A DNA stretch of 64,000 bases from Chloroflexota bacterium (GTDB lineage: Bacteria; Chloroflexota; Anaerolineae; UBA2200). Location of the stretch: positions 8,011-72,010 of the forward strand of contig JACIWW010000012.1 of assembly GCA_014360905.1 (NCBI GenBank). The letters run 5' to 3'. Positions 3,655 through 41,180 of this stretch are shown piece by piece. The number at the start of each line of letters is the position of its first letter. Within the stretch, counting starts at the first letter, position 1. The position numbers were made by a program, and so were the translations under genes. The notes beneath the pieces are model-generated. The model did no database searches and was not told the DNA's origin. It worked only from the letters and a program-made list of their open reading frames with translations.

Positions 3655-3955
3655 CCAATACCTGGTATTGCTGCTCAGCGTGGGCAACAGCCCACGCAAA
3701 AAGCCCCTCTCCTACAGCGTAGGAGAGGGTGGCCGGGGGTGAGGCAATCCAAGCGCTGAAGCGCTCACTACAAACCCGCCCAGGGGACGGCGGACTGTGT
3801 TGTCCGCCTGAAGCAGGGATTGCAGGGCACGGCCGGGGAATGAATTCCCTGGCTGAAGATGAGAAGCCCCTGCATGGGACTTGTCATTGAGCGCTTCAGC
3901 GCTTACCGCGAACCTAGCGCTGAAGCGCTCGCTACGAATTCGGACCAAAACTGCA
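3655..3955. repeat. Cluster of mosaic palindromic intergenic repeat modules (REP/BIME-like): GTGGGCAACAGCCCACGC, CCCCTCTCCTAC-AGC-GTAGGAGAGGGG, GAGCGCTGAAGCGCTC, GGCGGACTGTTGTCCGCC, CCAGGGAATTCCCTGG
   Basis: The same hairpin modules recur at 4825-4975, 6300-6600 (inverted), 8725-8925, 15445-15600, 29155-29350, 40566-40925 and 41085-41180. Confidence 0.8.
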
Positions 3956-4824: not shown

Positions 4825-4975
4825 TGGGCAATAGCCCACGCAAAAAGCCCCTCTCCTACAGCGTAGGAGAGGGGGCCGGGGGTGAGGCAATCCAAGCGCT
4901 GAAGCGCTCACTACAAACCCGCGCCAGGGGACGGCGGACTGTTGTCCGCCTGAAGCAGGTATTACGGGCGGCTTT
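4825..4975. repeat. REP-like palindromic module cluster (same family as 3655-3955)
   Basis: Near-identical to 3690-3830: GTGGGCAATAGCCCACGC...CCCCTCTCCTACAGCGTAGGAGAGGGGG...GCGCTGAAGCGCTCACTACAAACC...GGCGGACTGTTGTCCGCC...GGCGGCTTTGCTAGCCGCC. Confidence 0.8.
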
Positions 4976-4976
4976 G

Positions 4977-6191
4977 CTAGCCGCCTTCCTTTGCTCTGCC
5001 GTGCCTTCCTACTGCCATCATAGTAGCGATGGCTAGTAGGAAGCCAAGCGTCGCTACCCCGAACGGCATGCGCAATCCCCAGGAAGCCGCAGCGGCTGCG
5101 CCCAGAGTTGGGCCAATGGCACTAGCCAGCGATACGACGCTGGATTGTAGCCCAAAGACCGCACCATGGCGTCCATCCGGCGCAGCATCAGCCAAAGCGG
5201 TGCTCAGCGCTACCAGGATGGCTCCAACGGCAAAACCTTCCACAGCTCTCAGCAGCAGCAACTGCATTGGGCTGTTGGAAAAGCCCTGCAGGGCACAACA
5301 AAGGGCATTCGTGACCAGGCAAACCAGCAATAGCCTCCGCGTCCCAATGCGTGTGCCATAGCGCCCCGCAATAACGGAACCGACCGCTGTAGTTGCCATG
5401 TAGATGCTGTTGATCACTCCCACCGTCGAGGCGATCTTTGCCTCTGCGGGCACCAAGGATTGCACGAACAAGGGCAGCATGGGGCTCACCGCACGTAAAG
5501 AGGAAGAAATCAATAGACGCATGCCAAACACAGAGAGCACCCCAGGCGAGCATAACACTTGACGCAGCCCTTCCAGGAACGAATCCCCCTCCTTCTTCAG
5601 GCTCGCTCGTACTTCGCGCACCATCACCGCTACCAGCAGTCCACCTGCCCCCAGTAAGACCCCCGTGATGAGGAAACATGCCCGGTAGCCCCAGATATCT
5701 GCTACAAATCCGCCCACCGCTGGGCCGAGCGATTCTCCCAAGTAAACGCCCATCTGCAGCATGCCCAAAGCGAACGCGCGCATGGCACCTGGCGTGCCGG
5801 CAGCCACCAAGGTGAAGGATGCCGCCACCGTGCCTGTTACCGCACCCTGCAAGACGCGCAGCACGAGAAGCTGGTGGACATTGCGCACAAAAGCCATCGC
5901 CCCAAGGACCAAAGCACCGCCGAACATGGCGCGCTGCAGCATCAGTTTCCGCCCCAGGCGGTCGGACAGCGAACCCCAGATGGGCCCCATGATGCCCATG
6001 GAGATGGCATTCGCCGAATAGAGCAAGCCAGTCCACAGTTCCACCTGCCCAGGCCCTGTGATGCCCAACTCTTGCACATAATAGGGTAAAAAGGGTAGTG
6101 CCGCATCAAAGCCCATGAGTGCCAGTACTTCGGCCAACCACACCACGTACAAGTTGCGTCGCCAATTGAGCTGCGATGACTCTTCTGCCAT
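4977..6191 (-). CDS. MFS transporter (12-TM major facilitator)
   Basis: 404-aa ORF. Hydrophobic helices throughout. Typical MFS motifs GSLSDRLGRK and GRYGTR. Confidence 0.8.
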   Translation of the reverse strand: MAEESSQLNWRRNLYVVWLAEVLALMGFDAALPFLPYYVQELGITGPGQVELWTGLLYSANAISMGIMGPIWGSLSDRLGRKLMLQRAMFGGALVLGAMAFVRNVHQLLVLRVLQGAVTGTVAASFTLVAAGTPGAMRAFALGMLQMGVYLGESLGPAVGGFVADIWGYRACFLITGVLLGAGGLLVAVMVREVRASLKKEGDSFLEGLRQVLCSPGVLSVFGMRLLISSSLRAVSPMLPLFVQSLVPAEAKIASTVGVINSIYMATTAVGSVIAGRYGTRIGTRRLLLVCLVTNALCCALQGFSNSPMQLLLLRAVEGFAVGAILVALSTALADAAPDGRHGAVFGLQSSVVSLASAIGPTLGAAAAASWGLRMPFGVATLGFLLAIATMMAVGRHGRAKEGG

Positions 6192-6299: not shown

Positions 6300-6600
6300 A
6301 GGGTTTGCTCTAGGCGGACAACAGTCCGCCGTCCCCTGGCGGGTTTGTAGTGAGCGCTTCAGCGCTTGGATTGCCTCACCCCCAGCCCCTCTCCTACGCT
6401 GTAGGAGAGGGGCTTTTTGCGTGGGCTGTTGCCCACGCCGAGTAGGGGGGCGTAATTCAATTGCGCCCCTACAGCGCTCATCGGCGCCAGGGATTGAAAT
6501 CCCTGGCTAAAAATGACAAGCCCCTTCAGGGGCTTCTCGTGGCGTGGGCTGTTGCCCATGCCGAGCAAGGATGGCTAGCAAAGCCGCCCTACGGACTGCT
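6300..6600. repeat. REP-like palindromic module cluster (inverted orientation relative to 3655-3955), includes CCAGGGATTGAAATCCCTGG and AAGCCCCTTCAGGGGCTT hairpins
   Basis: Reverse-complement copies of the 4825-4975 modules plus two further hairpin modules. Confidence 0.8.
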
Positions 6601-8724: not shown

Positions 8725-8925
8725 CCAAGCGAGCGCGCTGAAGCGCACACTACGAACCCAACAGGAAAGGGGCGGCTAGAAAAGCCGTCTCTACCCCTTC
8801 ACGCTCCAGGCGGACAACAGCCCGCCGTTCCCTGGCGTGGGCTGTTGCCCACGTCGAGCAGAAAGAGGCGGCTAGAAAAGCCGCCCTACCCCTTCACGCT
8901 CCAGGCGGACAACATCCTCAGAAAA
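8725..8925. repeat. REP-like module cluster (GCGCTGAAGCGC, GGCGGCTAGAAAAGCCG, GGCGGACAACAGCCCGCC, GTGGGCTGTTGCCCAC)
   Basis: Same hairpin modules as the other clusters. GGCGGCTAGAAAAGCCGCC occurs twice. Confidence 0.8.
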
Positions 8926-9004
8926 TTTGACTTGAACAAAACATTTCACTATAATATTCTGACCCATCCCGTATATCAAGCATGAGGAAAGAGCAGAGGC
9001 AAGA

Positions 9005-10789
9005 TTGAGCACGAGCAGCACTTCGGGCAAACCCATCATCGTGCAGAGCGACAAAACCGTGCTGTTGGAGGTGGACAACCCCCTCTACGAGGAAGCACGC
9101 GATCACTTGGCGCGCTTTGCCGAGCTGGAGAAAAGTCCTGAATACGTCCATACCTATCGCATCACCCCATTGTCACTGTGGAACGCAGCCGCGGCGGGCA
9201 TGACCGCCGACACCATCCTCGACGCATTGAATGCGTACAGCAAGTACCCCGTGCCCGACAATGTGCGCGTGGACATCGTGGACTATATCTCGCGCTATGG
9301 CCGTGTGCGGCTCATCCGCGAGGATACGAAGTTGTTCCTGGAATCGCACGATGCTGCTTTGATGACGGAGTTGGCTCGCCACAAGCGCCTCCAGCCTTAT
9401 ATCCTGAAGCAGGTCAACCCCTTCCGCCTCATGGTGGATCCTCTCCGTCGGGGTCACATTAAGCAGGCACTGGTCTGGATTGGCTACCCTGCCGAGGACC
9501 TGGCTGGCTATGTGGAGGGTGCGCCATTGCATTTCTCCCTGCGCCAGGTTACGCGCAGCGGAGAGCCTTTTGTCCTTCGCCCTTATCAACTGGACGCCGC
9601 AGGCGCCTTCTACGCTGGAGGGGGGCCACAAGGCGGCAGCGGGGTCATTGTGCTACCCTGTGGAGCAGGCAAGACCATGGTTGGCATGGCGGTAATGGAG
9701 AAACTGCAGTGCGCAACCCTCATCCTTACCACCAACACCGTTGCCGCGCGGCAGTGGATCAGCGAACTGCTGGACAAAACAGACCTGCCCGAAGATGCCA
9801 TAGGGGAGTACACAGGACTGCGCAAGCAGGTGCGCCCGGTGACCATCAGCACCTACCAAATCATGACCTACCACCCCCGGCAGCGAGTCAAGGGCAAGAA
9901 AACAGAGGACGAGTTCCCGCACTTTGCCCTGTTCAACGAGGAAGATTGGGGTCTGATCATCTACGACGAGGTGCACCTGCTGCCCGCACCGGTGTTTCGC
10001 ATCACAGCCGAAATCCAGGCACGGCGGCGCCTAGGACTGACCGCGACGCTTGTGCGCGAGGATGGACGCGAGACGGACGTCTTTTCGCTCATTGGCCCAA
10101 AGAAGTACGACGCCCCGTGGAAAGACCTGGAGCGCCAGGGCTGGATCGCCACCGCCGAGTGCCACGAAGTGCGCATCCCGCTCCCAGATGACCAGCGCCT
10201 GCTCTACGCGCTGGCCGATGACCGTGACAAGTACCGCGTGGCGGCAGAGAATCCGCGCAAATTGCTCGTTCTCGACCAGTTGCTATCCAAACATAAGGAT
10301 GACAGCGTACTCATCATCGGCATGTACCTGGAGCAACTGCAGGAGGTAGCCGATCGCTACGGCTATCCGTTGATCACAGGCAAGACCACTGTGCGCGAGC
10401 GAGAGAAACTGTACGACGCCTTCCGGCGGGGCGAGATCAAATGCCTGATTGTCTCCAAGGTGGGCAACTTTGCCATAGACCTGCCCGATGCCAACGTCGC
10501 CATTCAGATTTCCGGCACCTTTGGCTCGCGGCAGGAGGAAGCACAGCGTCTGGGGCGCATCCTGCGTCCCAAGCGCCATGGCCTGCTGGCTCACTTCTAC
10601 GCCTTGGTCACGCGCGATACGCGCGATCAGGACTATGCCGCCAAACGGCAACTGTTCTTGACCGAGCAGGGCTATCGCTATGAGATCCTCTACGAGGACG
10701 AAATACCGCAATGGCAACCAACCGTGCTCGCACTCCAGCCCCGTCCGGCACGTCCCAAAGCTCTGATGGCAGGCCCGGGAGGGAACTAG
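9005..10789 (+). CDS. xpb: XPB/ERCC3(Rad25)-type superfamily-2 DNA helicase
   Basis: Walker A GAGKT (LPCGAGKTMVG), DEVH box, motif III TATL. Helicase C-terminal domain. N-terminal XPB-like damage-recognition region. Probable TTG start at 9005. Confidence 0.85.
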   Translation: MSTSSTSGKPIIVQSDKTVLLEVDNPLYEEARDHLARFAELEKSPEYVHTYRITPLSLWNAAAAGMTADTILDALNAYSKYPVPDNVRVDIVDYISRYGRVRLIREDTKLFLESHDAALMTELARHKRLQPYILKQVNPFRLMVDPLRRGHIKQALVWIGYPAEDLAGYVEGAPLHFSLRQVTRSGEPFVLRPYQLDAAGAFYAGGGPQGGSGVIVLPCGAGKTMVGMAVMEKLQCATLILTTNTVAARQWISELLDKTDLPEDAIGEYTGLRKQVRPVTISTYQIMTYHPRQRVKGKKTEDEFPHFALFNEEDWGLIIYDEVHLLPAPVFRITAEIQARRRLGLTATLVREDGRETDVFSLIGPKKYDAPWKDLERQGWIATAECHEVRIPLPDDQRLLYALADDRDKYRVAAENPRKLLVLDQLLSKHKDDSVLIIGMYLEQLQEVADRYGYPLITGKTTVREREKLYDAFRRGEIKCLIVSKVGNFAIDLPDANVAIQISGTFGSRQEEAQRLGRILRPKRHGLLAHFYALVTRDTRDQDYAAKRQLFLTEQGYRYEILYEDEIPQWQPTVLALQPRPARPKALMAGPGGN

Positions 10790-10823
10790 ACCTGTCAGGT
10801 TTAGATAGAGAAGAAACAGCCAG

Positions 10824-13121
10824 ATGAAGACCTCTGATTTGGATAATCTGTATGCCCTAGATGAAGTTCGGATCGCAGACATGCTCTTTGGCAAGATTTA
10901 CGAGCGTGCCTACGCGTATTATCGCGATCACCGCGTGCTGAATCCCCGGCGCATCGGTGCTGTGTTGGAGGCAGAAGTACAGGGTACGGAACTGTACTCC
11001 GTGCGCGTTGAGGCGCGCGAGGGCATGATTTTGGCGTCTTGCACCTGCCCCTTTGCCGAAACCGCCGTCTGCAAGCACATCGGTGCGGTCTTGCTGCAGT
11101 GGGTCCACCGACCAGAGTCTTTCCAAGTGGTAGAAGAAGAGGAGACAACCGTGTCCCAGCCTGCTGTAGCGCCCGCTCCACCTCAGGAAGCTTCACCCTT
11201 GAGCGAACAGCCTTGGTGGCAGGCTGACGAAGGCGGTGCTGCCCGAGAAACCAAGTCCATCCTGTCAGACCTGATCGAGCAGCTCTCGCTCAACGAACTG
11301 CGCGAGATCGCTCGCCTGCGGGAGTGGCGGATCAAGGGCAGCACCAAGGCGGACTACCGCACGGCACTGGCTCCCTTGCTTGTCAACCCCACCGAGATCG
11401 CTCGCGCCGTGACTTCCTTGCCGGATGCGCTGCGCGAGGCGTTGCGTGCGGCTTTTGTGGTGGAAGAGGGCAACGGCATTGCCCCCACGACCCTGGCACA
11501 AGCCATCACCGCGCTGCGCGGCGCAGCAGGTCCAGTGCTCAAGCCTGTGGAGGCGGCAGGGCTGCTGTCCGATCTGGCGCGCTGGGGGCTATTGCTCCGC
11601 TGGCACAACTCACCTGATGGCTCGCTGCGTTACCTATTTCCATGGGAAGTGCAACGGCATGTACCACCCTTGTTGGGTTGGTGTGCGCAGATAGCGCAAG
11701 CGCCAACCGATCAGATACAGTCTCAAAAGCGCGATGACATCGTGCATCTCCTGTACGCAGTGTGGGAGCGCATCGCTCAGCAGCCACTTACTTTGCCTTC
11801 CCCTCCTAAACCCCCATCCCGCAAGCATCACACGCCGGCTTTGGGGAATTGGCCCTACGAACCAGAGGAAGCGGAGATCAGGCTGGGGAAAAACCGCGAG
11901 TGGATGAACTCCCTGCAGTATGGAATGTCCGTGCCTGCCTCAGTTCGCTTGTTAGACGATGCAGTTCTGTCGGAACTCGCACCCCTGACGGGTGGCGATG
12001 TCGAGGAAGTGGAGTTTTTGTGCCACTTGCTATGCGATTTGGAACTGGTCAGCGGGGAAAAGGGATACCTGCTTGCTCGTCCTGCATTGATGAACGATTT
12101 TCTATCCAACCCCAAGCACCGACAATATGCATGGATCCTGCAGACCTATCTGTCCATGCAGAGATGGAGCGAACTGGACATGCTGCTGCGCGCTGACCGC
12201 CGTCTGACGTTATGGCGCAGGCCTATCCCATTCTTCACCTACGAGCAGTTTCGCTTCCAACTGCTCCGCATGCGCCATATATTGCTACGCTTTCTGGCGA
12301 CGGCAGGAGAAGAAGGCTGGTGCTTGCTGGCGGATATGGAAGCGGCATTGCGCTTGTTGTGGCCCCATTTCTCAGCCATTCTGGACATACAGAGGCAGAC
12401 CTGGCTTCAGAACCTGTGGGGACTGTCCTGGCGTGGGGACAAACGCGAACTGAAGACGGAGAATGAGCAGGATTGGCGCGCAGCCCAAGGCGGCTTCTTG
12501 CGCGCCCTACTGACAGGCCCGCTATTCTGGCTGGGCTTTGTCGAACTGAGCAGAAAAGACGGCGAGTTGGTCGCGGTGCGCATGCACGGACTGGCGGATT
12601 GGATGTGGAACCGTCCCAGCCCCGCCCCAGAGGAATTGCCCTTGGGCGAGCCAGTCACGATAGACGAGGCAAACCTGGCCATCGTGGTGCATCCTGGAAC
12701 TGTACCGCCACAGGCGCACACATTGTTGGGGCGCATCGCGCGTTTGGAAGAGGCAACGCCGACCCGCTTTGTCTATCGGTTGGATATGCGCACAGCATAC
12801 GCCACTTTCGAGCGTGGTGAGTTGCTGGATGACCTGCTTGGTACCTGGGAAAAAGTCATGCCCGTGCCTTTCCCTGCTTCCTTGCGCGAGGCACTGGCTG
12901 AATGGTGGGCGCGGTATGGCCAGGTGCGGCTCTACGAAGGATTTGCACTGCTGGAACTGGGCGACGATATCGCCCTGCTGGAACTGGAGGCAAGCACTCC
13001 GTTGCGGGAATACATCGTGGCCAAGCTGTCACCGCGCCTGGTGCTCGTGGCGGAGGATGCTGTGGATGAACTGCTGCAGGCATTCACCACCAAAGGGTAT
13101 ACGCCGAAAGAGATGAGGTGA
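10824..13121 (+). CDS. Large SWIM zinc-finger protein, function unknown, paralogous in part to the next gene
   Basis: SWIM motif C-x-C-x(n)-C-x-H: CTCPFAETAVCKH. Shares motif GPLFWLGFVELS with the GPLHWLGLVDIS of the next protein. Starts 35 nt after the helicase stop. Confidence 0.6.
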   Translation: MKTSDLDNLYALDEVRIADMLFGKIYERAYAYYRDHRVLNPRRIGAVLEAEVQGTELYSVRVEAREGMILASCTCPFAETAVCKHIGAVLLQWVHRPESFQVVEEEETTVSQPAVAPAPPQEASPLSEQPWWQADEGGAARETKSILSDLIEQLSLNELREIARLREWRIKGSTKADYRTALAPLLVNPTEIARAVTSLPDALREALRAAFVVEEGNGIAPTTLAQAITALRGAAGPVLKPVEAAGLLSDLARWGLLLRWHNSPDGSLRYLFPWEVQRHVPPLLGWCAQIAQAPTDQIQSQKRDDIVHLLYAVWERIAQQPLTLPSPPKPPSRKHHTPALGNWPYEPEEAEIRLGKNREWMNSLQYGMSVPASVRLLDDAVLSELAPLTGGDVEEVEFLCHLLCDLELVSGEKGYLLARPALMNDFLSNPKHRQYAWILQTYLSMQRWSELDMLLRADRRLTLWRRPIPFFTYEQFRFQLLRMRHILLRFLATAGEEGWCLLADMEAALRLLWPHFSAILDIQRQTWLQNLWGLSWRGDKRELKTENEQDWRAAQGGFLRALLTGPLFWLGFVELSRKDGELVAVRMHGLADWMWNRPSPAPEELPLGEPVTIDEANLAIVVHPGTVPPQAHTLLGRIARLEEATPTRFVYRLDMRTAYATFERGELLDDLLGTWEKVMPVPFPASLREALAEWWARYGQVRLYEGFALLELGDDIALLELEASTPLREYIVAKLSPRLVLVAEDAVDELLQAFTTKGYTPKEMR

Positions 13122-13130
13122 GAGCAACGC

Positions 13131-15380
13131 ATGGCTCACATGCTCCACGAAATCTTGGATGGCTATCACTACGAGGCATTGGCACGCATCGCCGAGTTCA
13201 ACCACATTGACACGGTGGATGCGCAAGGGCATAAATTGCGCAAGCGCGAGTTGATTGAGGCACTTTGCAAGTGGCTTTTCACGCCGGAGCGCATCGCGCA
13301 GGTGCTGGCTGCCCTTCGCCCTCTGGAACGGGCTGTCCTGGATCGTTTGCTGCTGCACGGTGGCGAAGCGGACACAGTGTCCTTGCGCGAAGAACTGCAG
13401 CGCGAGGGCATTGTGCAAGCGCAGCCCCTTTCCAAAGGGTGGCAAAAGAGCAACATCAACGATCCCTATGCATGCAACGGGGATTATTTTGAGGATGTCA
13501 TCGCTCGTTTGACCTTACGCGGGCTAGTGTTCAGCAGCAACGCTGAGTTGCTGTGGCCGCTGAACGCCAAACTGGGCTTTGCTCCAGGGCAACGCCTGAT
13601 CGTGCCGAAACCCCTGCGCCAGTATTTGCCCCGTCCCGAATTGCCTTCGCTGGAGTGGGGCCGGGGTAGCCTGCCTGCTCCAGTAGAAGAGACCGACACA
13701 GCGCTCGCACAAAGGGAGTTGTTCCTCTATTGGAGCATCGTGCGCGCCAAACCGTTGCCTCTGACCCAGGCTGGATTGCTCCAAAAACGGGCGTTGCGCA
13801 GCATCAACGAGCAGTTGCTCTTTCCGAACCATGCGCTGGAAAGCGCGAATAACGAGAGCGAAGCGCCCCACCTCTACTTTCTGCGTATGCTGTTGCAGGA
13901 ACTGGGGCTGTTGCTCTGCGAACGGGAGCAAGTGCGTGCCTCCGGTGAGCCAAGCCAGGTGCCCGAATTCTGGGAAAAGCCCATCGAGGAACGCGTGCGC
14001 GCCTGTCTTGAGGCATGGCAGCGCTTGACCCAATGGAGCGAACTGACGCATCTGGGAGTGTCTGCTTTTGACATTGACTTGCCACGCGCACGCGGTCTCT
14101 TGCTGGAGCAACTGCGGCATGTGCCGGTTGAAACCTGGCTCTCTGCGGATCGCTTCCTAAGCCGCTTGGCCATCACTACGCCGCGGCTGCTCTTCAAGTC
14201 GCGGGAGTTGCCTGCCAGAGGACGTTACTACCAGGATGTCAATCACGAGATGGAGCAGGATCGCTGGTTTGCCAAGGTCGAAGCGGCGTTTGTCGGTGGG
14301 GCATTGAGCGGGCCATTGCACTGGCTGGGATTGGTGGACATCTCAGCGGACGGAAACCGCCTGCTGGCTTTTCGCGTGAATGCCAGTGGCGCACGCGTAT
14401 TGGGCATTGCCCCCAAAAAGGCAGCAGAGGCTCCACCAGCTGAGACCAAGGTGATCGTGCAGCCCAATTTCGAGGTCTTTGCCTTGGGGCCAGTCCCGGA
14501 GGTGATTCTGGCCAGATTGGAGATGTTTGCCGACCGCGTGAAGGTGGATCGCAGCGCCTTTGCCTATGTGCTCTCGCGCGAGACGGTCTATCGCGGGCAA
14601 AGGTATGGCCTGTCCGTGCCGCAGATTATCGCCTTCCTCGAGGAGCAAACGCATGCCCCATTGCCGCAGAACGTCCTGCGCACGCTGCAGGAATGGAGCG
14701 AGCAACACGAACGCATTATCTTTCACCACACGGTCGCGCTCTGCCAAACGGCCAACCCGGAAGCGCTCGATGCACTGTGGAACGACTCTGCCGTGCAGAC
14801 GCATCTGGAGCGGCGCCTGACGCCTACCGTAGCATTGGTGAAAAGGGGACGTGCGGTAGCCTTGCGCGAACTGCTCCTTCAGCGCGGAATGCTGCCCGCT
14901 TTGAGCACAGAGCAGGATTCCTGTCTTGGGCGCGTGCAGGCCACTCCCGAAGGGGAGTTGCGCCCTGTCCATGCCGGCCCTGACTTGCTGCTGGAGAAGT
15001 TGTTGCAGGATTTGGCGGAGCAGCGGGATGGACGTTTCTACGTGACCGAGTCATCAGTGACGCGGGCGCTGGCTTCTGGCATGAGCGTGCACGAGTATCT
15101 GAAGCGCTTGGCCGCTCTGCAGCATGGGCCACTGCCGGCACAATTGCAACGGCGCATCAAGGCTTGGGGTCGCTACTATGGCAAAGCGGCGTTGCAAAAG
15201 ACAGTGCTATTAGAGGTGAAGGATGCCGCTACAGCGGAAGAACTGCTCGCCGATGAGGAACTGGCGCCGCTTTTGTCGCGCTTTGCCGCCGACACACGTG
15301 GATGCCTGTTGGAAGTGCGCACCGAAAATCTGGAGCACTTGCACCGTCTGCTGCGCGAGCGCGGGATAGAGGTAGCATAA
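13131..15380 (+). CDS. Large hypothetical protein, paralogue of the SWIM protein without the zinc finger
   Basis: 749 aa. Starts 10 nt after the previous stop. Shares an N-terminal helical segment and the GPLHWLGLVDIS...RLLAFR motif with the upstream gene. Confidence 0.5.
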   Translation: MAHMLHEILDGYHYEALARIAEFNHIDTVDAQGHKLRKRELIEALCKWLFTPERIAQVLAALRPLERAVLDRLLLHGGEADTVSLREELQREGIVQAQPLSKGWQKSNINDPYACNGDYFEDVIARLTLRGLVFSSNAELLWPLNAKLGFAPGQRLIVPKPLRQYLPRPELPSLEWGRGSLPAPVEETDTALAQRELFLYWSIVRAKPLPLTQAGLLQKRALRSINEQLLFPNHALESANNESEAPHLYFLRMLLQELGLLLCEREQVRASGEPSQVPEFWEKPIEERVRACLEAWQRLTQWSELTHLGVSAFDIDLPRARGLLLEQLRHVPVETWLSADRFLSRLAITTPRLLFKSRELPARGRYYQDVNHEMEQDRWFAKVEAAFVGGALSGPLHWLGLVDISADGNRLLAFRVNASGARVLGIAPKKAAEAPPAETKVIVQPNFEVFALGPVPEVILARLEMFADRVKVDRSAFAYVLSRETVYRGQRYGLSVPQIIAFLEEQTHAPLPQNVLRTLQEWSEQHERIIFHHTVALCQTANPEALDALWNDSAVQTHLERRLTPTVALVKRGRAVALRELLLQRGMLPALSTEQDSCLGRVQATPEGELRPVHAGPDLLLEKLLQDLAEQRDGRFYVTESSVTRALASGMSVHEYLKRLAALQHGPLPAQLQRRIKAWGRYYGKAALQKTVLLEVKDAATAEELLADEELAPLLSRFAADTRGCLLEVRTENLEHLHRLLRERGIEVA

Positions 15381-15444: not shown

Positions 15445-15600
15445 CTGCGCTGAACCAGGGATGACGGCGGATTGTTGTCCGCCTGGAGCATGAAGAGTTA
15501 GGACGGCTTTTCTAGCCGCCTTTCCTGTTGGGTTCGTAGTGCGCGCTAAAGCGCTCACTACGAACAAAGCCCCTGAAAGGGGCTTGTCATCCCCTAGCAA
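15445..15600. repeat. REP-like module cluster
   Basis: GGCGGATTGTTGTCCGCC, GGCGGCTTTTCTAGCCGCC (inverted), GCGCGCTAAAGCGCTC, AAGCCCCTGAAAGGGGCTTG. Confidence 0.8.
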
Positions 15601-15613
15601 GCGCAGCGGCCTC

Positions 15614-15642
15614 TTGACAAATCAATCGAAATGTGCTATAAT
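15614..15642 (+). promoter_or_regulatory. Consensus sigma70-type promoter TTGACA-N17-TATAAT, followed by a ~380-nt leader before the AOR operon
   Basis: TTGACA at 15614-15619 and TATAAT at 15637-15642, spacer exactly 17 nt. No ORF lies between it and 16028. Confidence 0.55.
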
Positions 15643-16027
15643 TATCTTGCAAATTCAAAAATCATAGTGCAACCGAGTTCGCGCTGAGCGCGCCTGAGGC
15701 ATTCTCCTGACAGTGTACCTGGGAGATGGCTTAAGAGAAGTGCTGTGTCGTAGGGGTCACAGCCTCCGACCTGTCTCCTCCCCCTGGGAGGAACGGGCGT
15801 TAGGGTACGGGGAGCAATTCCTGTGCCTGCCGTGTTTGCGAAGGAGGCGAATTCCAATCGAGTTAGCGATTGGCTATTTGCCTCCTTCTTGAATTTTATG
15901 GAGGGAATTGGGCAGCGTTTGCAGATTCACACTCAGAGAGGAGGTGGTGTGCAGGCAGTAGAACCCTTTGGACGTCCGTACGTAGACGCTACATTTCTTG
16001 ATCAATTTGGAGGAGGAGAGGAAAGAA

Positions 16028-16891
16028 ATGTCACAAAAGATGCAGGACAGAATTTCGGAACTGCAGGAGCAATTGCGGCAGGGCGTGATCAGCCGACGTG
16101 AATTCTTGCGCTATGTGACGTTGCTGGGTGTGTCGCTGGGAGCGGCGGAGGCTTTGGCTGCCTGCGCGCCCAAGCCCACACCGACCGTGGCGCCGCCTAC
16201 AGTGGCACCACCAACGGCACCACCGCCTACAACGGCACCACCACCGCCCACAGTTGCCCCCACGGCTCCACCGCCCGCAGCCGAGAAGCAAGCTTTGGCT
16301 GGGCACATGCTGCGCTTTAACCCCGCCATCTGCACCGGCTGCCTCATCTGCGCGGTAGCCTGCGCTGACAAGTGGGCCACGGAGTACTTCCCGGAGGAAG
16401 CCGCCAAGGGTGTCAACCTGGAATTCTCCCGCATTCGCCCCATGCGCTCGCAGTACGTGGATATCATCAACGTCTGCCAGGACTGCCGCCTGATTGAGTG
16501 GGCGGAAGGCTCAACTAAAGCGCCGTGCGAGCAGGTTTGCCCACAGGGAGCGATTTCAGTGGTGCCCGAAGGGCAGGGCAAGCCCGGCTACACCGGCATG
16601 GGCTACCTGAACGTAGACCGCGACCTGTGCCTTGGCCTTGATCTCTGCGGGCGCTGTCTGGAGGTCTGCGAGGACCAGTTCGGCAGCGGCATCTCCTTTG
16701 ACCCCATCGAGAAGAAGGCGCAAATCTGCACGCGTTGCGGCGGGTTGCCCACCTGCGTCGAGGTCTGCCCAGAGCCTGGCGCGCTGCTGTTCGTACCGTT
16801 GCAGACCAACGGCCGCTATTGGGCACAAACGCCAGAAGAGTACTTTGAACTTACCTATGCCAAGTTGTTCGCGGAGAGGAGGGACGTATAA
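16028..16891 (+). CDS. TAT-exported lipoprotein-type poly-[4Fe-4S] ferredoxin subunit with Pro/Thr-rich linker. Likely electron-transfer partner of the AOR.
   Basis: RBS GGAGGAGGAGAGG before ATG 16028. Twin-arginine SRREFLRY. Lipobox LAACAP. PTVAPP repeats. At least 4 Cys clusters (CTGCLICAVAC, CQDC...C, CLGLDLCGRCLEVC, CTRCGGLPTCVEVCP). Confidence 0.7.
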   Translation: MSQKMQDRISELQEQLRQGVISRREFLRYVTLLGVSLGAAEALAACAPKPTPTVAPPTVAPPTAPPPTTAPPPPTVAPTAPPPAAEKQALAGHMLRFNPAICTGCLICAVACADKWATEYFPEEAAKGVNLEFSRIRPMRSQYVDIINVCQDCRLIEWAEGSTKAPCEQVCPQGAISVVPEGQGKPGYTGMGYLNVDRDLCLGLDLCGRCLEVCEDQFGSGISFDPIEKKAQICTRCGGLPTCVEVCPEPGALLFVPLQTNGRYWAQTPEEYFELTYAKLFAERRDV

Positions 16892-18930
16892 TGGCCGAGT
16901 TAAAGGGTGCTACAGGAAAGATCGCACGTGTGGATCTGACCACAAAGAAAGTAACAGTCGTCGAGCCGCCAGTTGATGTATACAAGAAATTCCTCGGCGG
17001 CGAGGCGCTCGGGCTCTACTTTATGGTCGCGGAAGGCCTTATTGACCCCAAGGTGGAGCCGTTCAGCCCACAGAACATGGTGCAGTTCATGATCGGGCCG
17101 GTGACCGGCATAGGGCCCAATGCTCGGTCCGTGATCGTCACCAAGAGCGCGTACAACTTTATGACCGTCACGACGTCGGGTGGCCGCGCAGCGGCAGAAC
17201 TCAAGTTTGCTGGCTGGGACGGCATCCAGGTTGTGGGTAAGTCGGACAAGCCCGTCTACATCGCGGTGGTAGACGACAACATCGAGATCCGCGATGCCAG
17301 CCATATCTGGGGCATGGGCACCGAAGAGGCGGAATTGGAACTGCTCAAGTCGGTGCTAGCGCCCAACGAGTGGCGTGAGAGTATCCTCACCGACCGGGAT
17401 CTAACTCCAGAGTGGGCAGCGCTGCGCCCGGTCAAGCGCAAGGGCATCGGCGCCAAACGGCTGGCGGCGGCCTGGGTCATCGGCCCCGGCGGCGAAAACG
17501 GCGTCTGGTACGCCAACGTCATCACCGAGGGTGCGCGCGCCCATGGCCGCTACGGCGCTGGGGCGATTGTTGGCTCCAAGAATCTGAAGGGCATCGTCAT
17601 CCGCGGCACCAAGGGACACATGCTGGCTGACAAAGGCAAGTTCCTGCAACTGGCCAAAGAGATTCAGGCTTCCGAAGCCACCAACTACTTCTGGCGCTCC
17701 TTCGGCACAGCCGGCATCGGCGCCCGCTGCGCGAACGCTGAGGATGCCTTCCCCATCCGCAACTGGCAGTGGGGCGCCTGGGCGGATCCGATGGTTGTCA
17801 AAGCACTGGAAGGGCCGTGGATGGATGCCGCTAGCTTTGTCAAGCAGATGGCCTGCCCTGGCTGCACCTTGCACTGCATGTACCTCACTGAAATCACCAG
17901 CAAGGACCCGCTCATGGACGGCGTCATCACCGACATGCCCGACTGGGAGGCCATGGGCATGGTTGGCGGCAACCTGGGTTACTGCGAACTGGAAGGCACC
18001 ACGCCCAGCGATCAGTGGAAGGGTGACCACTGGGATTTGATGGAAGCCCTCGCCAAGACCCAGTATACCACCTTCCTCCATGACAACAATGGACTCGACT
18101 ACATCGAGGGTGGCGCGCTGCTGGCTATGCTGATGGAGCTCATCCAGCGCAACCTCATCACCCCAGCCGATCTGGATGGCATCAACCTCAAATGGGGCGA
18201 TGTCCATGCCGTGGATGCCATTATCAAGAAGATCGCGCACAAGGAAGGCATCGGCGCTGTGCTGGCCAAGGGCACCTACGAGACGGCCAAGTACTTTGCC
18301 GAAAAGAAGGGCAAGCCGGAGATCATGAATTACTCCATGACTGGCCATCGCTATACCCAGCCCGCGCACGACGTCCGCGGCTTTGACAAGGACGCTCTGG
18401 AGTACGTGACGGTGGAGCGGCCCTGCGAACACACCGGAGGCGGCGGCGCCGGGTTCATGAAGAAGGACTATCCCGCCGCCATTGCCGGGCAGAATACCCA
18501 GGCCACGCACAACTCCTTGGTCATATGCTCTTTCGCTGCTGGCAACTGGGCGGGCAAGATCGCGGCCATGGTGCAGGCAGCCACCGGCTGGACCGACTTT
18601 ACTGAGGACGACGTACCCAAGGTCGGCGCCCGCGCCTATGCCCTGGCCAGGATCTTTAACCTCACGACGCAAGGGATCAAGGACCCGAAGAAAGAATGGG
18701 ATAACCTTAACCTCTTCCCGCCTCGCTGGTTCTACGATCCACTGCCCACTGGCATCGGCAAGGGGCGTGTGGCGTACGAGGGCAAGCCAGAGGTGTTATT
18801 CAATGAAGCCCTGCCCGCTTACTGGAAGACCAGAGGCTGGAGCGAGGACAAGGGCGTGCCTCTCGCCGACACGCTCAAAGCCCTTGGCATTGACGACATC
18901 GCCGAACCGTACGCCGCCAAACTGCGCTAG
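16891..18930 (+). CDS. aor: Aldehyde:ferredoxin oxidoreductase family (tungsten/molybdopterin AOR)
   Basis: 679 aa. AOR N-terminal domain (MAELKGATGKIARVDLTTKKV...GGEALGLYF) and AOR C-terminal domains. RBS GGAGAGGAGGG. Overlaps the upstream stop by 1 nt. Confidence 0.9.
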   Translation: MAELKGATGKIARVDLTTKKVTVVEPPVDVYKKFLGGEALGLYFMVAEGLIDPKVEPFSPQNMVQFMIGPVTGIGPNARSVIVTKSAYNFMTVTTSGGRAAAELKFAGWDGIQVVGKSDKPVYIAVVDDNIEIRDASHIWGMGTEEAELELLKSVLAPNEWRESILTDRDLTPEWAALRPVKRKGIGAKRLAAAWVIGPGGENGVWYANVITEGARAHGRYGAGAIVGSKNLKGIVIRGTKGHMLADKGKFLQLAKEIQASEATNYFWRSFGTAGIGARCANAEDAFPIRNWQWGAWADPMVVKALEGPWMDAASFVKQMACPGCTLHCMYLTEITSKDPLMDGVITDMPDWEAMGMVGGNLGYCELEGTTPSDQWKGDHWDLMEALAKTQYTTFLHDNNGLDYIEGGALLAMLMELIQRNLITPADLDGINLKWGDVHAVDAIIKKIAHKEGIGAVLAKGTYETAKYFAEKKGKPEIMNYSMTGHRYTQPAHDVRGFDKDALEYVTVERPCEHTGGGGAGFMKKDYPAAIAGQNTQATHNSLVICSFAAGNWAGKIAAMVQAATGWTDFTEDDVPKVGARAYALARIFNLTTQGIKDPKKEWDNLNLFPPRWFYDPLPTGIGKGRVAYEGKPEVLFNEALPAYWKTRGWSEDKGVPLADTLKALGIDDIAEPYAAKLR

Positions 18931-18957
18931 GTCTGGCTAGTCCCGAGGAAGCACATG

Positions 18958-19002
18958 AGGGCCCCAACCTGTGTACTCCATCGGGTTGGGGCCCTTTGCG
19001 TA
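18958..19002 (+). terminator. Rho-independent terminator after aor
   Basis: GGGCCCCAACC-loop-GGTTGGGGCCC followed by TTTGCGT. Confidence 0.6.
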
Positions 19003-19018
19003 TGTGGTTGTGCGCCGT

Positions 19019-19115
19019 CAACGAATGGGGACACGAATAAACGAATAGCATGTTGTAGTTAGATCCGTCTGTTGCCTGATTCGTTGATGGCCCATTTGTC
19101 ATGCTGAGGCCAGCT
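19019..19115. repeat. Iterated-hexamer hairpin element (ACGAAT x3 ... ATTCGT), second repeat family
   Basis: TCAACGAATGGGGACACGAATAAACGAAT...ATTCGTTGATGG. Related copy at 41003-41080. Confidence 0.6.
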
Positions 19116-19214
19116 GAAGCATCTGACGCAGCCAAACGGTCTCACATAACTCGCGAGGAAAAATCGCAGGCCGGCGTGGGCGACAGTCCATAACTTTAAT
19201 ATGAAACTGCAGGT

Positions 19215-20141
19215 GTGATAATGCAAGAACAAAGGACGTGGAATTATAATGAATTCTTCTACCGCAATTATGGCATCTTCACGGAAGAGGAACAGCGCCG
19301 CATCAGGGATGCCAGAGTAGTAGTTGCTGGCTGTGGCGGTATCGGCGGGGTACTTGCGGTCGCTCTGGCACGCATGGGTATCAGCCACTTGGTGCTTATG
19401 GACCCTGAAAGCTACGAACCTTCGAACATGAACCGGCAGATTGCCTGTTTTTGCGAGAACATTGGCAAGAACAAGGCGCGTTGTATCGAAGAGCAGATAC
19501 GTTGCATTAATCCAGAGGCTGATGTTACGGTCTATGAGCGCGCCTTGGTATACGATGAAATCGAAGAGATTGCCAAACTGGGCGATGTCATCGCCCCGGC
19601 GATGGATGAATGGCCACTAAGCTTGATGGCGCTGGAAATCATTCGCAAATCCAAGCCCGCCGTGATGGCTTATCCCGTGGGCGCATTGGGACGCGTCTCC
19701 GTCTTCACTGCGGACAGCCCCACCGTGGCCGAATGCTTGGTGATGCCCTATGGATTTGGCTATCATGAATTGCAGGAGTATACTACGCGCCCGGACGCGC
19801 GGTGGCTTCTCTTGTATTATGTTACAGAAGGTCAGTGGAGGGAGGACTGGTTCGCGCAATGGGTGGAGGGCAAGCTCCCGCATGCCCAGATTTGTCCCAT
19901 TGTCTGGATTACCGGGACATTGGCGGCGCTGGAAATCATCAAACTGGTTAGTGGTAAATGGAAACCTGTTATTTCTCCCTATTATTGGTATATTACGCCG
20001 TCGCGAGCGCGTATCCGAAAGTTCGGGCTGAGGCGCAAATTGGCTTCGCGGCTATCGCGGCACAAGGCGCTGAGGGAACAGATGATCCGCTTGGCGCGCT
20101 CGAAAGCATTTGTACGCTTTTTCACACGTCTGATTGACTAG
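19215..20141 (+). CDS. ThiF/MoeB/HesA-family E1-like adenylyltransferase
   Basis: Rossmann GxGxxG motif VVVAGCGGIGGVLAVALARMGI. Typical ThiF-family core. GTG at 19215 or ATG at 19221. Confidence 0.7.
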   Translation: MIMQEQRTWNYNEFFYRNYGIFTEEEQRRIRDARVVVAGCGGIGGVLAVALARMGISHLVLMDPESYEPSNMNRQIACFCENIGKNKARCIEEQIRCINPEADVTVYERALVYDEIEEIAKLGDVIAPAMDEWPLSLMALEIIRKSKPAVMAYPVGALGRVSVFTADSPTVAECLVMPYGFGYHELQEYTTRPDARWLLLYYVTEGQWREDWFAQWVEGKLPHAQICPIVWITGTLAALEIIKLVSGKWKPVISPYYWYITPSRARIRKFGLRRKLASRLSRHKALREQMIRLARSKAFVRFFTRLID

Positions 20142-20769: not shown

Positions 20770-22218
20770 ATGCTTCATGAGATCAACCAATTGTTGGCTG
20801 AATGGCGGCAGGGCCGGCTCAGCCGACGTAGCTTTATCCGCTACGCTACGCTTTTGGGCTTGTCTTTGGGAGCAGCCGAAGCACTGGCTGCTTGCGCACC
20901 TTCTCCAACGCCTACAGCGGCCCCTACTCCTGTCCCTACACCTACAGCCACATTCATACCTAGTCAGATCGCCGGTGAAGACGCCGAGGTGCCAACCCCC
21001 GAATGGGTGCCAACACCCCTACCGCCCATGACGCCTACGCCGACCATTACCTGGCCCAAGCCAACTCCCACGCCGGTGATGTGGGAACCAGCCATGTGGG
21101 CTTGCCCTTCTTGTACAGAGCGCTTCTCCACGCAGGAGGAGCTCGTCAAGCACATCCTGGCGAAGCATGCACGCAAGATTCCCGGAGCCCGGCGCGTGGA
21201 CCAACCCACCTATGCCCGTTTCCTGACTGACCAGGTGGCGCGCTTTGACCAGCGCAATACCGTCTTCTCGCGTGTGATGTGGGATAAGGATTACCAGGAA
21301 CAGATTAGCAAAGTAACGTTGCGGCCAAGGCGCGAGACAGTGGAGGAAATGATCAAGGGCAGAGCGCTAGTCGCTGGTGCCATTTATGCGGACGACGTCG
21401 CCGGCAGCCTGGCGCCCAATTACCGCGGCTACAGTGGCCATGTGCACGGATATGGCGGGCTGTATGGGTGGGACGACCCAGTGAGTGCGGAACGCCTACC
21501 CGTGACCGACAAAGCAGAGATGTCGGAGCATATCAAGACCGTGGCACGCTTTTACGGCGCCGACCTGGTGGGGATTTGCGCAATCAACCCGCTATGGGTA
21601 TACTCGCATTACTATGACCGCGAAACCGGCGAATATGGAGAACTGGAAATCCCGTACAAATATGCCATTGTGATGGGGCTGGAGATGGACTTTGCCTGCA
21701 TCAATCAGTCCCCTGGCTTTGAAGCCAGTGCGGCAACGGCGCTGATTTATTCGAAGATGGCGGAAGTAACGGCCAAGCTAGCCAAGTACATCCGTGCTTT
21801 GGGTTACGAAGCGGTGCCCTCTGGAAATGACACGATGCAGAATATTCCACTAGCCATTGATGCCGGCTTGGGCGAAATCGGCCGGCTAGGCTTGCTACTC
21901 ACGCCCGAATTCGGACCACGGCAACGCCTCTGCAAGGTGCTGACAAACTTGCCGCTGGCAACAGACAAACCCATTGACTTTGGCATGCAGCGCTTTTGCG
22001 AGATGTGTCTTTTCTGTGCCCATGCCTGCCCCGCGAAGGCCATCCCCTTTGGCGAGCGTTCGCTGGAGCGGACTTCCATCTCCAACCGGCCAGGCATTTT
22101 GCGCTGGACGGTGAACGTGGGCAACTGCTACCTGTTCTGGCGTGCCAATGGCGGCACAGATTGCTCGAACTGCGTCGCAGCATGCCCATGGGGCCAGCAG
22201 AATCGTCCCTGGCTCTAG
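20770..22218 (+). CDS. TAT-exported RdhA/QueG-superfamily Fe-S (corrinoid-type) reductase, reductive-dehalogenase-like. N-terminal twin-arginine lipoprotein signal, Pro/Thr linker and a C2H2-type zinc-finger motif.
   Basis: Twin-arginine SRRSFIRY. Lipobox LAACAP. Finger CPSCTERFSTQEELVKHILAKH (C-x2-C-x12-H-x4-H). Family motifs RFYGADLVGI and AGLGEIGRLGLLLTPEFGPRQRL. Fe-S motifs FCEMCLFCAHACP (C-x2-C-x2-C-x3-CP) and C-x12-CSNCVAACP. Confidence 0.6.
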   Translation: MLHEINQLLAEWRQGRLSRRSFIRYATLLGLSLGAAEALAACAPSPTPTAAPTPVPTPTATFIPSQIAGEDAEVPTPEWVPTPLPPMTPTPTITWPKPTPTPVMWEPAMWACPSCTERFSTQEELVKHILAKHARKIPGARRVDQPTYARFLTDQVARFDQRNTVFSRVMWDKDYQEQISKVTLRPRRETVEEMIKGRALVAGAIYADDVAGSLAPNYRGYSGHVHGYGGLYGWDDPVSAERLPVTDKAEMSEHIKTVARFYGADLVGICAINPLWVYSHYYDRETGEYGELEIPYKYAIVMGLEMDFACINQSPGFEASAATALIYSKMAEVTAKLAKYIRALGYEAVPSGNDTMQNIPLAIDAGLGEIGRLGLLLTPEFGPRQRLCKVLTNLPLATDKPIDFGMQRFCEMCLFCAHACPAKAIPFGERSLERTSISNRPGILRWTVNVGNCYLFWRANGGTDCSNCVAACPWGQQNRPWL

Positions 22219-29154: not shown

Positions 29155-29350
29155 TGCTGGGCGTGGGCAACAGCCCATGCAAAAAGCCCCTCTCCTACAG
29201 CGTAGGAGAGGGGGCAGGGGGTGAGGCAATCCGAGCGCTGAAGCGCTCACTACAAACCCGCCAAGAGACGGCGGACTGTTGTCCGCCCGGAGCAGGCATT
29301 AAGCATAGCCAGGGATTTCAATCCCTGGCACTTGTGAGCGCTAAGGCGCT
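29155..29350. repeat. REP-like module cluster
   Basis: GTGGGCAACAGCCCATGC, CCCCTCTCCTACAGCGTAGGAGAGGGGG, GAGCGCTGAAGCGCTC, GGCGGACTGTTGTCCGCC, CCAGGGATTTCAATCCCTGG, GAGCGCTAAGGCGCTC. Confidence 0.8.
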
Positions 29351-29368
29351 CACTACAAGCCTCTCTGC

Positions 29369-40565: not shown

Positions 40566-40925
40566 TGGAGTTCGTAGTGAGCGCTTCAGCGCTTATTGGT
40601 GCCAGGGAGTGAAATCCCTGGCTAAAAATGACAAGCCCCTTTCAGGGGCTTGCTCACGTTCAGCCGAGGAATTCACTCCCCGACCAAGGAATGCTGGGCA
40701 TGGGAGCCCAGCCTGCTGCGCCTTTGCAGAGGCGGCTCCCCCTGGGTGAGTTTGTAGTGAGCGCTTCAGCGCTTATTGGTGCCAGGGATTGAAATCCCTG
40801 GCTAAAAATGACAAGCCCCTTTCAGGGGCTTGCTCACGTTCAGCCGGGGAATTCACTCCCCGACCAAGGAATGCTGGGCATGGGAGCCCAGCCTGCTGCG
40901 CCTTTGCAGAGGCGGCTCCCATGCC
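40566..40925. repeat. ~180-bp tandem duplication (2 copies, ~98% identical) composed of REP-like hairpin modules
   Basis: 40566-40745 and 40746-40925 align with about 4 mismatches. Contains GAGCGCTTCAGCGCTT, CCAGGGATTGAAATCCCTGG, AAGCCCCTTTCAGGGGCTT and GGGAGCC...GGCTCCC. Confidence 0.85.
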
Positions 40926-40989
40926 GCCATCGTCCGGGCACTCTGTCATCGCGAGCCGCCGCAGGCGGACCACAGGCCGTCACGAGCAG

Positions 40990-41180
40990 TTGAGTGGCAG
41001 CCATCAACGAATAGGGGAACGAATAAACGAATGGGTAGTGATTCGTTCATTCGTTTTGGCGCAGCCATTCGTTGACGGCATCCCTGCTCCAGGCGGACAA
41101 CAGGTCGCCGTCTCTTGGCGTGGACTGTTGTCCACGCCGAGCAGAAGAAGGCGGCTAGAAAAGCCGCCCTACCTATTCAA
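40990..41180. repeat. ACGAAT-iteron hairpin element (41003-41080) followed by REP-like modules (GGCGGACAACAGGTCGCC, GTGGACTGTTGTCCAC, GGCGGCTAGAAAAGCCGCC)
   Basis: TCAACGAATAGGGGAACGAATAAACGAATGGG...ATTCGTTCATTCGTTTTGGCGCAGCCATTCGTTGA. Confidence 0.7.

Follow-up and report, generated by a model that had tools for sequence, protein, structure and literature searches.

Bacterial XPB helicases have been known since 1997. In eukaryotic TFIIH, XPB is held and regulated by the subunit p52/Tfb2. The N-terminal domain of XPB and the clutch of p52 are of the same domain type, and XPB is recruited when the two pair in a pseudo-symmetric heterodimer (PMC6422496); the role of this clutch/N-terminal-domain dimer is documented (PMC6422496, PMC7708078). 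Archaeal XPB is built without this N-terminal PF13625 domain (PMC3353954) and is reported to be encoded next to a nuclease partner, Bax1 (PMC7293015, PMC7672443), which binds the ThM/HD2 region. As for bacteria, p52 homologues were described as absent in the 2012 paper on Mycobacterium tuberculosis XPB by Balasingham et al. (PMC3353954); of the actinobacterial XPB-partner pair discussed below, only XPB has been studied biochemically (PMC3353954); and a 2026 review still calls the function of bacterial XPB elusive (PMC13024598). Here we compare with these systems a three-gene operon at positions 9005-15380 of a 64,000-nucleotide stretch of DNA from a Chloroflexota bacterium (GenBank assembly GCA_014360905.1, contig JACIWW010000012.1, positions 8,011 to 72,010), called the window throughout. 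The operon encodes an XPB helicase and two large partner proteins, the products of open reading frames (ORFs) 2 and 3, and it probably specifies a translocase complex that corresponds, in bacteria, to the XPB-p52 bottom lobe of TFIIH. The three frames lie where an earlier annotation, made by a model from the sequence alone and referred to here as the original prediction, had placed them.

The XPB helicase and its two partner proteins

The genes of the operon and their domains are as follows; the intergenic gaps measure 34 nucleotides (nt) between XPB and ORF2 and 9 nt between ORF2 and ORF3.

9005-10789 (+): XPB gene, 594 amino acids (aa), TTG start codon, ribosome-binding site GAGGAAAGAG upstream
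9035-9412 (+): XPB N-terminal domain, residues 11-136, PF13625 (Pfam Helicase_C_3, E=1e-41; aligns to yeast Rad25 130-253)
10824-13121 (+): ORF2 gene, 765 aa; N-terminal SWIM finger, linker, p52/Tfb2-like body with terminal clutch domain
11040-11078 (+): SWIM zinc-finger motif C73-x-C75-x7-C83-x-H85, inside the N-terminal domain (about residues 20-100)
12678-13022 (+): ORF2 clutch domain, residues 619-733, PF13625 (Pfam, 34.7 bits against a gathering score of 34.2)
13131-15380 (+): ORF3 gene, 749 aa; p52/Tfb2-like body (winged-helix array and clutch), then a second clutch-like domain
14451-14819 (+): ORF3 clutch domain, residues 441-563, PF13625 (Pfam, E=3e-27)
14928-15377 (+): ORF3 C-terminal second clutch-like domain, about residues 600-749 (second PF13625 stretch in Pfam)

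The first gene had been called a bona fide XPB/ERCC3 helicase, and its score on the NCBIfam equivalog model repair_heli_XPB (NF045503), 872.8 bits against a cut-off of 610, confirms this. It also clears the eukaryotic rad25 model TIGR00603 (357.8 against 328.7 bits), contains the Pfam domains ERCC3_RAD25_C, ResIII and Helicase_C, and shows the GAGKT (Walker A), DEVH and VREDGRE (RED) motifs in its translation. Compared with PDB sequences, it reaches 296 bits with yeast XPB and ~281 bits with human XPB, the N-terminal domain and the motor both being aligned, whereas two archaeal XPBs reach 148 and 108 bits only. Judged by its sequence, the window XPB is a eukaryote-like form carrying the N-terminal PF13625 domain.

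That the two partners are paralogous, another claim of the original prediction, is well supported: BLASTP aligns ORF2 and ORF3 over ~360 aa (E=1e-13), including a GPLFWLG/GPLHWLG motif, and hhalign of the two family profiles pairs ORF3 5-591 with ORF2 147-763 (probability 99.9%, E=1.9e-33). The SAP-like N-terminal helices described at the same time do align between the paralogues, but Pfam detects no such motif in the window proteins themselves. In P0418, a metagenomic relative of 1346 aa in which ORF2-like and ORF3-like bodies are joined in one polypeptide with three PF13625 stretches, the equivalent segment (a Rho_N/SAP-like motif at 157-198) scores 24.5 bits on Rho_N, just under the gathering score of 24.9, and also matches SAP_new25.

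AlphaFold2 (AF2) models of the partners, built from the family alignments, have a predicted local distance difference test score (pLDDT) of 86.2 for ORF2 and 85.1 for ORF3. We compared them by Foldseek with the PDB, including the TFIIH XPB-p52(Tfb2)-p8 structures 6NMI, 6TRS, 8EBS and others. For ORF2, the top 21 matches are all p52/Tfb2 chains (best E=1.2e-9, ~635 columns), with ZSWIM8 next; for ORF3, the top 16 are all p52/Tfb2 chains (425-620 columns), followed by XPB chains that are matched via their N-terminal domains. The E-values for ORF3 are 3.4e-11 with 8ebs_D, 1.2e-9 with the p52-p8 crystal structure 6TRS, 1.6e-9 with yeast 7zs9_2 and 1.1e-8 with 6nmi_D. For both partners the Foldseek probability to p52/Tfb2 is 1.00 with 560-640 aligned columns, the range over the p52/Tfb2 chains, the 6TRS construct included, being 425-640 columns, and this search of the PDB returned nothing else significant beyond p52/Tfb2, XPB N-terminal domains and ZSWIM8. 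Chain D of 8EBS, 8EBT, 8EBU and 6NMI is taken to be p52 on the basis of those entries and of its length; sequence or profile matches establish 7o4i_2, 7zs9_2 and 6trs as Tfb2/p52. On the strength of these models, ORF2 and ORF3 appear to be remote structural homologues of TFIIH p52/Tfb2. The function of the partners had originally been called unknown, and a match to a well-characterised family had been named as an outcome that would speak against the prediction; such a match has now been found at the top of both Foldseek rankings, though only a remote one, and this is itself the point of interest.

Sequence comparisons extend the structural matches, above all at the clutch. TIGR00625 (tfb2) gives a weak match to ORF3 there, yeast Tfb2 337-408 aligns weakly to ORF3 439-511, with the strand IVETNF in Tfb2 facing IVQPNF in ORF3, and the ORF3 family profile matches the human XPB N-terminal domain (E=1e-4) and Chaetomium thermophilum Tfb2 (E=0.033). 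The C-terminal domain of ORF3 aligns with XPB 51-133 (BLASTP, E=6e-5), and in a search of the PDB its sub-profile A3 finds XPB N-terminal domains alone (best E=0.011), with neither p8 nor the Tfb2 C-terminal domain among the matches. In ORF2, which ends at its own clutch domain in the profile alignment, residues 631-760 are matched by the N-terminal region of the NCBIfam XPB model. Among ORF3 relatives, 15/39 match Pfam Tfb2 (PF03849) below the gathering score (best 29.2 bits, E=5.7e-7), and the fused relative P0418 clears it (42.5 against 34.5 bits). P0418 may be a true fusion; since the two genes lie just 9 nt apart, it may equally be an artefact of read-through or sequencing. phmmer found no match to it among PDB sequences.

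The first partner probably does carry the SWIM finger that had been reported in it. Its CxCx7CxH motif is kept in 20/20 members of the ORF2 family that possess the N-terminal domain, although the Pfam SWIM score (PF04434, 17.3 bits) stays slightly below the gathering score of 19.6. In the AF2 model this region forms four strands followed by helices, with a fold match to ZSWIM8 (Foldseek, E=1.6e-3). The N-terminal ~100 aa of ORF2, with the conserved CxCxnCxH finger, match the N-termini of PADLOC DpdE and the candidate PDC-S62 (E ~1e-10), two examples of bacterial SWIM proteins tied to SF2/SNF2 helicases. The likeness goes no further than the SWIM domain: the remainder of ORF2 is p52-like, and it accompanies an XPB, not an SNF2 or Dpd helicase.

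Set beside the TFIIH module, the operon resembles it in both components: an XPB composed of a PF13625 N-terminal domain, a DRD-like linker and two RecA domains, and a partner in which, according to the models, a winged-helix-rich body is followed by a clutch homologous to the XPB N-terminal domain. There are also differences. TFIIH has one p52, whereas the bacterial operon has two p52-like subunits (one or three in some lineages); ORF2 has an N-terminal SWIM finger, unlike p52; ORF3 has a second clutch-like domain in place of the p8-binding C-terminal domain; and the partners are larger (~750 aa against ~460-510 aa) and only ~12-15% identical to p52 in sequence. With the archaeal XPB-Bax1 system the operon shares an XPB-family motor gene beside a dedicated partner gene, but its partners are p52-like and without a nuclease fold, and the window XPB is closer to the eukaryotic form (~281-296 against 108-148 bits).

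Conservation of the operon in Chloroflexota and other phyla

Our survey of Chloroflexota scanned one genome per species and returned 65 loci. In every locus with enough upstream DNA, genes for XPB, an ORF2-like and an ORF3-like protein follow one another in this order on the same strand; the operon that had looked conserved in the original prediction, with synteny named as the test, thus keeps its order across the loci of these species. Identity across these loci is 62-88% for XPB but no more than 25-70% for the partners. When all ORFs of the 65 loci were clustered, no conserved neighbour emerged beyond the three operon genes, and the idea of a conserved extra gene was rejected; in 10 sampled loci the flanks are metabolic or housekeeping genes. 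Three loci contain a third PF13625 paralogue, encoding 609-615 aa with PF13625 at about residues 461-572, and so have three p52-like partners in one operon. These loci and a mycobacterial one used below are:

L008, 4178-6007: extra gene between XPB and the SWIM paralogue
L017, 4672-6519: extra gene between XPB and the SWIM paralogue
L060, 1843-3690: extra gene between XPB and the SWIM paralogue
L073, 6001-9948: Mycobacterium leprae pair, partner of 753 aa and XPB of 549 aa, intact, adjacent and co-directional

Between Chloroflexota and other bacteria, XPB is still ~55% identical across phyla. A single "helicase-associated domain-containing protein" adjoins it in Deinococcus, Paenibacillus (where the genes overlap), Actinomyces and M. 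leprae, in line with the original prediction, which held that bacterial XPB often stands beside a large partner: this is seen in Actinomycetota, Deinococcus and Paenibacillus. In Tsukamurella, the partner gene lies within 5 kb of XPB, beside a sigma factor gene; in two cyanobacteria, XPB is adjoined by a shorter PF13625 protein (622 aa) with an architecture like that of the short extra Chloroflexota gene; and an Armatimonadota-labelled contig contains two adjacent PF13625 proteins and no XPB.

The M. leprae partner aligns with the ORF3 family over 559 columns (hhalign, probability 96%) and with ORF2 at the clutch only, which identifies ORF3 as the universal partner type, to which the lone XPB partners of the other phyla also belong, and ORF2 as a Chloroflexota-specific, SWIM-bearing duplicate. 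The actinobacterial arrangement resembles the window operon in its XPB (M. tuberculosis Rv0861c/Ercc3, ~55% identity) and in its adjacent, co-directional ORF3-type partner, as in the M. leprae pair, and differs in having a single partner, in the order partner then XPB, and in the lack of a SWIM paralogue. The M. tuberculosis partner gene is presumably Rv0862c; papers mentioning Rv0862c concern genomics or screening by their titles and abstracts, at which level none appears to characterise the protein. Around the M. leprae pair, the called ORFs are mostly short and without Pfam matches, consistent with the known decay of that genome. Some actinobacterial partners carry precomputed WYL-domain (PF13280) matches.

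Two small genes beside partners were considered as candidates for a p8/Tfb5-like subunit and rejected: the 99-aa genes of Deinococcus and Actinomyces are unrelated to each other. The Deinococcus ORF lies between XPB and the partner on a plasmid of Deinococcus sp. QL22 (locus L066, 8744-9043), and its last 60 residues (LSVLEVQDSADLDALLLD...) resemble, by eye, the beta-alpha-beta-beta-alpha tail of the clutch; the encoded protein may be a small subunit, either p8-like or a fragment of a clutch. The Actinomyces ORF of equal size looks membrane-embedded.

The family is sizeable. Searched against 1.84 billion proteins, the ORF3 profile matched 6587, 3754 and 939 representatives of clusters at 50% identity at E<=1e-3, 1e-10 and 1e-30, respectively; the weaker matches may have been reached via the shared PF13625 domain, for example in XPBs. 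The 939 clusters at the strictest threshold speak for a broad family, which includes pathogens such as M. leprae. Among 50,697 phage records, no ORF3 homologue was found.

A putative translocase complex and competing explanations

How could such a complex work? By analogy with TFIIH, the XPB N-terminal domain would pair with a partner clutch, most likely that of ORF3, as a pseudo-symmetric heterodimer, which would anchor the motor and tune the XPB ATPase. The second clutch-like domain of ORF3 may then pair with the ORF2 clutch, so that the four PF13625 domains would form two pairs in a heterotrimer. The winged-helix arrays, the HeH/SAP-like motifs and the SWIM finger might hold DNA or another protein as an anchor, against which XPB would pump double-stranded DNA, leading to local opening or remodelling of the DNA. 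Since the operon is without a nuclease, incision, if any, would be left to unlinked enzymes. Only the genetic linkage and the fusion of ORF2-like and ORF3-like bodies bear on whether the partners would bind XPB and stimulate its ATPase.

Several observations weigh against this reading. Foldseek TM-scores to p52 are low (0.2-0.3), with root-mean-square deviations >20 Å, which we attribute to flexible multi-domain chains that take different overall shapes. The isolated N-terminal half of p52 (6tru) matches at E=0.34 only, which is not significant; the 6TRS construct, which spans p52 MD1, MD2 and CTD (PMC7708078), does match significantly. The homology is thus well founded for the middle domain(s), the clutch and the C-terminal side, and less secure at the extreme N-terminus. 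By sequence, the window proteins both stay below the Pfam and TIGR thresholds for Tfb2: ORF2 matches neither PF03849 nor TIGR00625, and ORF3 has no Pfam Tfb2 match at E<=0.1 and scores 12.4 bits on TIGR00625 (tfb2; cut-off 320.7), the match lying at the clutch. In a sequence search with the A1 profile, human p52 was missed at a threshold as loose as E<=10. Neither ORF2 nor ORF3 contains anything that can be recognised as the p8-binding C-terminal domain of p52, and, unlike in TFIIH, no p8, p34, p44, p62, XPD or CAK genes are linked to the bacterial operon. In the proposed assembly, every protein-protein contact is deduced from homology, and the scheme of two pairs from four domains does not obviously fit lineages with one or three partners.

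Could the partners do without the helicase? As free-standing DNA-binding regulators, they would respond to DNA damage or some other cue by controlling the transcription of genes, xpb among them, without forming a stable helicase complex, and the shared PF13625 would merely be a common DNA- or ligand-binding module. The winged-helix-rich body of the AF2 models would suit this, as would the names of relatives ("DNA-binding protein", "MerR regulator"), the precomputed WYL matches in some actinobacterial relatives and the Tsukamurella partner standing 5 kb from XPB beside a sigma factor gene. However, the one structurally documented role of the domain in p52 is heterodimerisation with the XPB N-terminal domain (PMC6422496), the gene linkage is tight and strictly conserved (gaps of 9-34 nt or overlapping genes), and the similarity to p52 reaches well past the clutch; we consider regulators of this kind an improbable explanation, if the least improbable of the three alternatives. 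An archaeal-style repair pair like XPB-Bax1, with a cryptic nuclease in one large partner, is suggested by the adjacency of the archaeal XPB and Bax1 genes and had been raised in the original prediction, which called for a look at Bax1-like or PD-(D/E)xK folds. Neither was detected: Pfam, NCBIfam and PADLOC report no nuclease family, nor any other enzymatic domain, in the partners, and the AF2 models are explained by SWIM, p52-like and clutch domains, with no Bax1, XPG or PD-(D/E)xK protein among the significant PDB matches. As the window XPB is also far more like eukaryotic than archaeal XPB, we give a hidden nuclease almost no credence.

The original prediction had also entertained a helicase-based defence system, in which XPB would translocate on phage or plasmid DNA while the SWIM and p52-like proteins act as sensors or adaptors. 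PADLOC does link the helicase core of XPB with PbeA (E=1e-21) and the N-terminal part of ORF2 with DpdE and the candidate PDC-S62 (~1e-10), the flanks of the module differ between genomes, and certain cyanobacterial XPB-partner pairs are located on megaplasmids or close to toxin-antitoxin and insertion sequence (IS) elements. But the matches are to single domains and do not add up to a multi-component system: ORF3 has no match in PADLOC-DB v2, and no effector (nuclease, NADase or membrane protein) is found in or beside the module. Defence genes evolve fast and are patchy, whereas XPB is 62-88% identical across the 65 Chloroflexota species and ~55% across phyla; the module is flanked by metabolic or housekeeping genes in the window and in the 10 loci sampled; M. 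leprae, with its reduced genome, has kept both genes intact; and the phage records searched contain neither homologues nor counter-copies. With the PADLOC, flanking-gene and phage checks all negative, we rejected defence as an explanation and hold it to be very unlikely.

For the XPB-p52-like complex, the cellular role is the weakest step of our argument. Most likely it lies in chromosomal DNA repair or in rescuing transcription that has been blocked, rather than in immunity; what favours genome maintenance or repair linked to transcription is slow evolution, housekeeping flanks, the lack of phage copies, retention in M. leprae and a rifampin phenotype. The last refers to an ercc3 deletion mutant of M. 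tuberculosis that is hypersusceptible to rifampin, an inhibitor of RNA polymerase (PMC10534295). On the other side, M. tuberculosis is only distantly related, and CRISPR interference did not reproduce the phenotype (PMC10534295).

Databases label relatives of the partners "helicase-associated domain-containing" or "XPB/Ssl2 N-terminal domain-containing"; annotation has thus already captured the shared domain. Full-text searches of the literature outside subscription-only papers found no description of a bacterial p52/Tfb2 homologue or of an XPB-p52-like complex. What appears to be new here is a bacterial version of the known XPB-p52 module of TFIIH, with a duplicated partner, a SWIM finger and neither p8 nor the remaining TFIIH core. 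With the p52 homology, a helicase-associated protein so far uncharacterised becomes a regulatory subunit open to testing; the homology also predicts a simple two- or three-protein system for studying the XPB-clutch mechanism, which is mutated in human xeroderma pigmentosum and trichothiodystrophy (XP/TTD). With the window XPB about twice as similar to eukaryotic as to archaeal XPB, the finding also bears on the origin of TFIIH. It is tempting, if decidedly speculative, to suppose that the bacterial module is ancient and widespread and that eukaryotes acquired the bottom lobe of TFIIH (XPB with its N-terminal domain plus p52) when a bacterial lineage passed this module to their stem, and did not derive it from archaeal XPB-Bax1. 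If so, XPB-p52-like complexes would be a minimal and tractable model of how p52 controls the XPB translocase, and would open the first approach to what bacterial XPB does in the cell.

Boundaries and surroundings of the operon

The operon is framed by the following elements, of which the last two belong to the next unit downstream.

8927-8955 (+): promoter-like site TTGACT-17-TATAAT, 11/12 consensus positions, ~50 nt upstream of the XPB start codon
15390-15454 (+): inverted repeat (hairpin) with 21-nt arms, 90% complementary, 10 nt past the ORF3 stop codon
15614-15642 (+): next promoter-like site, sigma-70-like, 12/12 consensus positions
15752-15862 (+): molybdenum cofactor (Moco)/tungsten riboswitch RF01055, 46.6 bits against a gathering score of 36

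No promoter-like site comparable to that at 8927-8955 is present within the XPB-ORF2-ORF3 cluster, and the inverted repeat after ORF3 likely marks the end of the transcription unit. A promoter before XPB, none inside, a hairpin after ORF3 and a separate next unit together delimit a self-contained three-gene operon, and by all appearances XPB, ORF2 and ORF3 are co-transcribed. The genes flanking it in the window are ordinary metabolic genes.

The original prediction had described the operon as bracketed by clusters of repetitive extragenic palindromic (REP) elements. REP-like repeats do lie on both sides of it, at 8733-8917 and 15473-15565, but they are not tied to it: the same elements recur at at least seven further intergenic sites of the window and are therefore genome-wide elements, not parts of the module. 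For the same reason, REP elements as boundaries of a mobile cassette were rejected. The intergenic REP-like palindromic repeats of the window, listed by position, are:

3761-3939: REP-like palindromic repeats
4904-4985: REP-like palindromic repeats
6307-6357: REP-like palindromic repeats
8733-8917: REP-like palindromic repeats, upstream of the operon
15473-15565: REP-like palindromic repeats, downstream of the operon
29243-29360: REP-like palindromic repeats
39094-39108: REP-like palindromic repeats
40570-41166: REP-like palindromic repeats

They are of several kinds (GGCGGCTAGAAAAGCCG hairpins, GCTCCAGGCGGACAACA boxes and GCGCTCACTACGAAC palindromes), occur far more often than expected by chance and build composite clusters in either orientation.

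Downstream, the promoter at 15614-15642 and the Moco/tungsten riboswitch precede genes for an Fe-S protein, an aldehyde:ferredoxin oxidoreductase (AOR) and a ThiF-like protein at 15998-20141 (+). This riboswitch-led Fe-S/AOR/ThiF unit forms a cofactor-sensing operon of its own, separate from the XPB module. On its 3' side, a gene at 20770-22218 (+) encodes a 482-aa protein with 4Fe-4S dicluster domains and a weak reductive-dehalogenase match.

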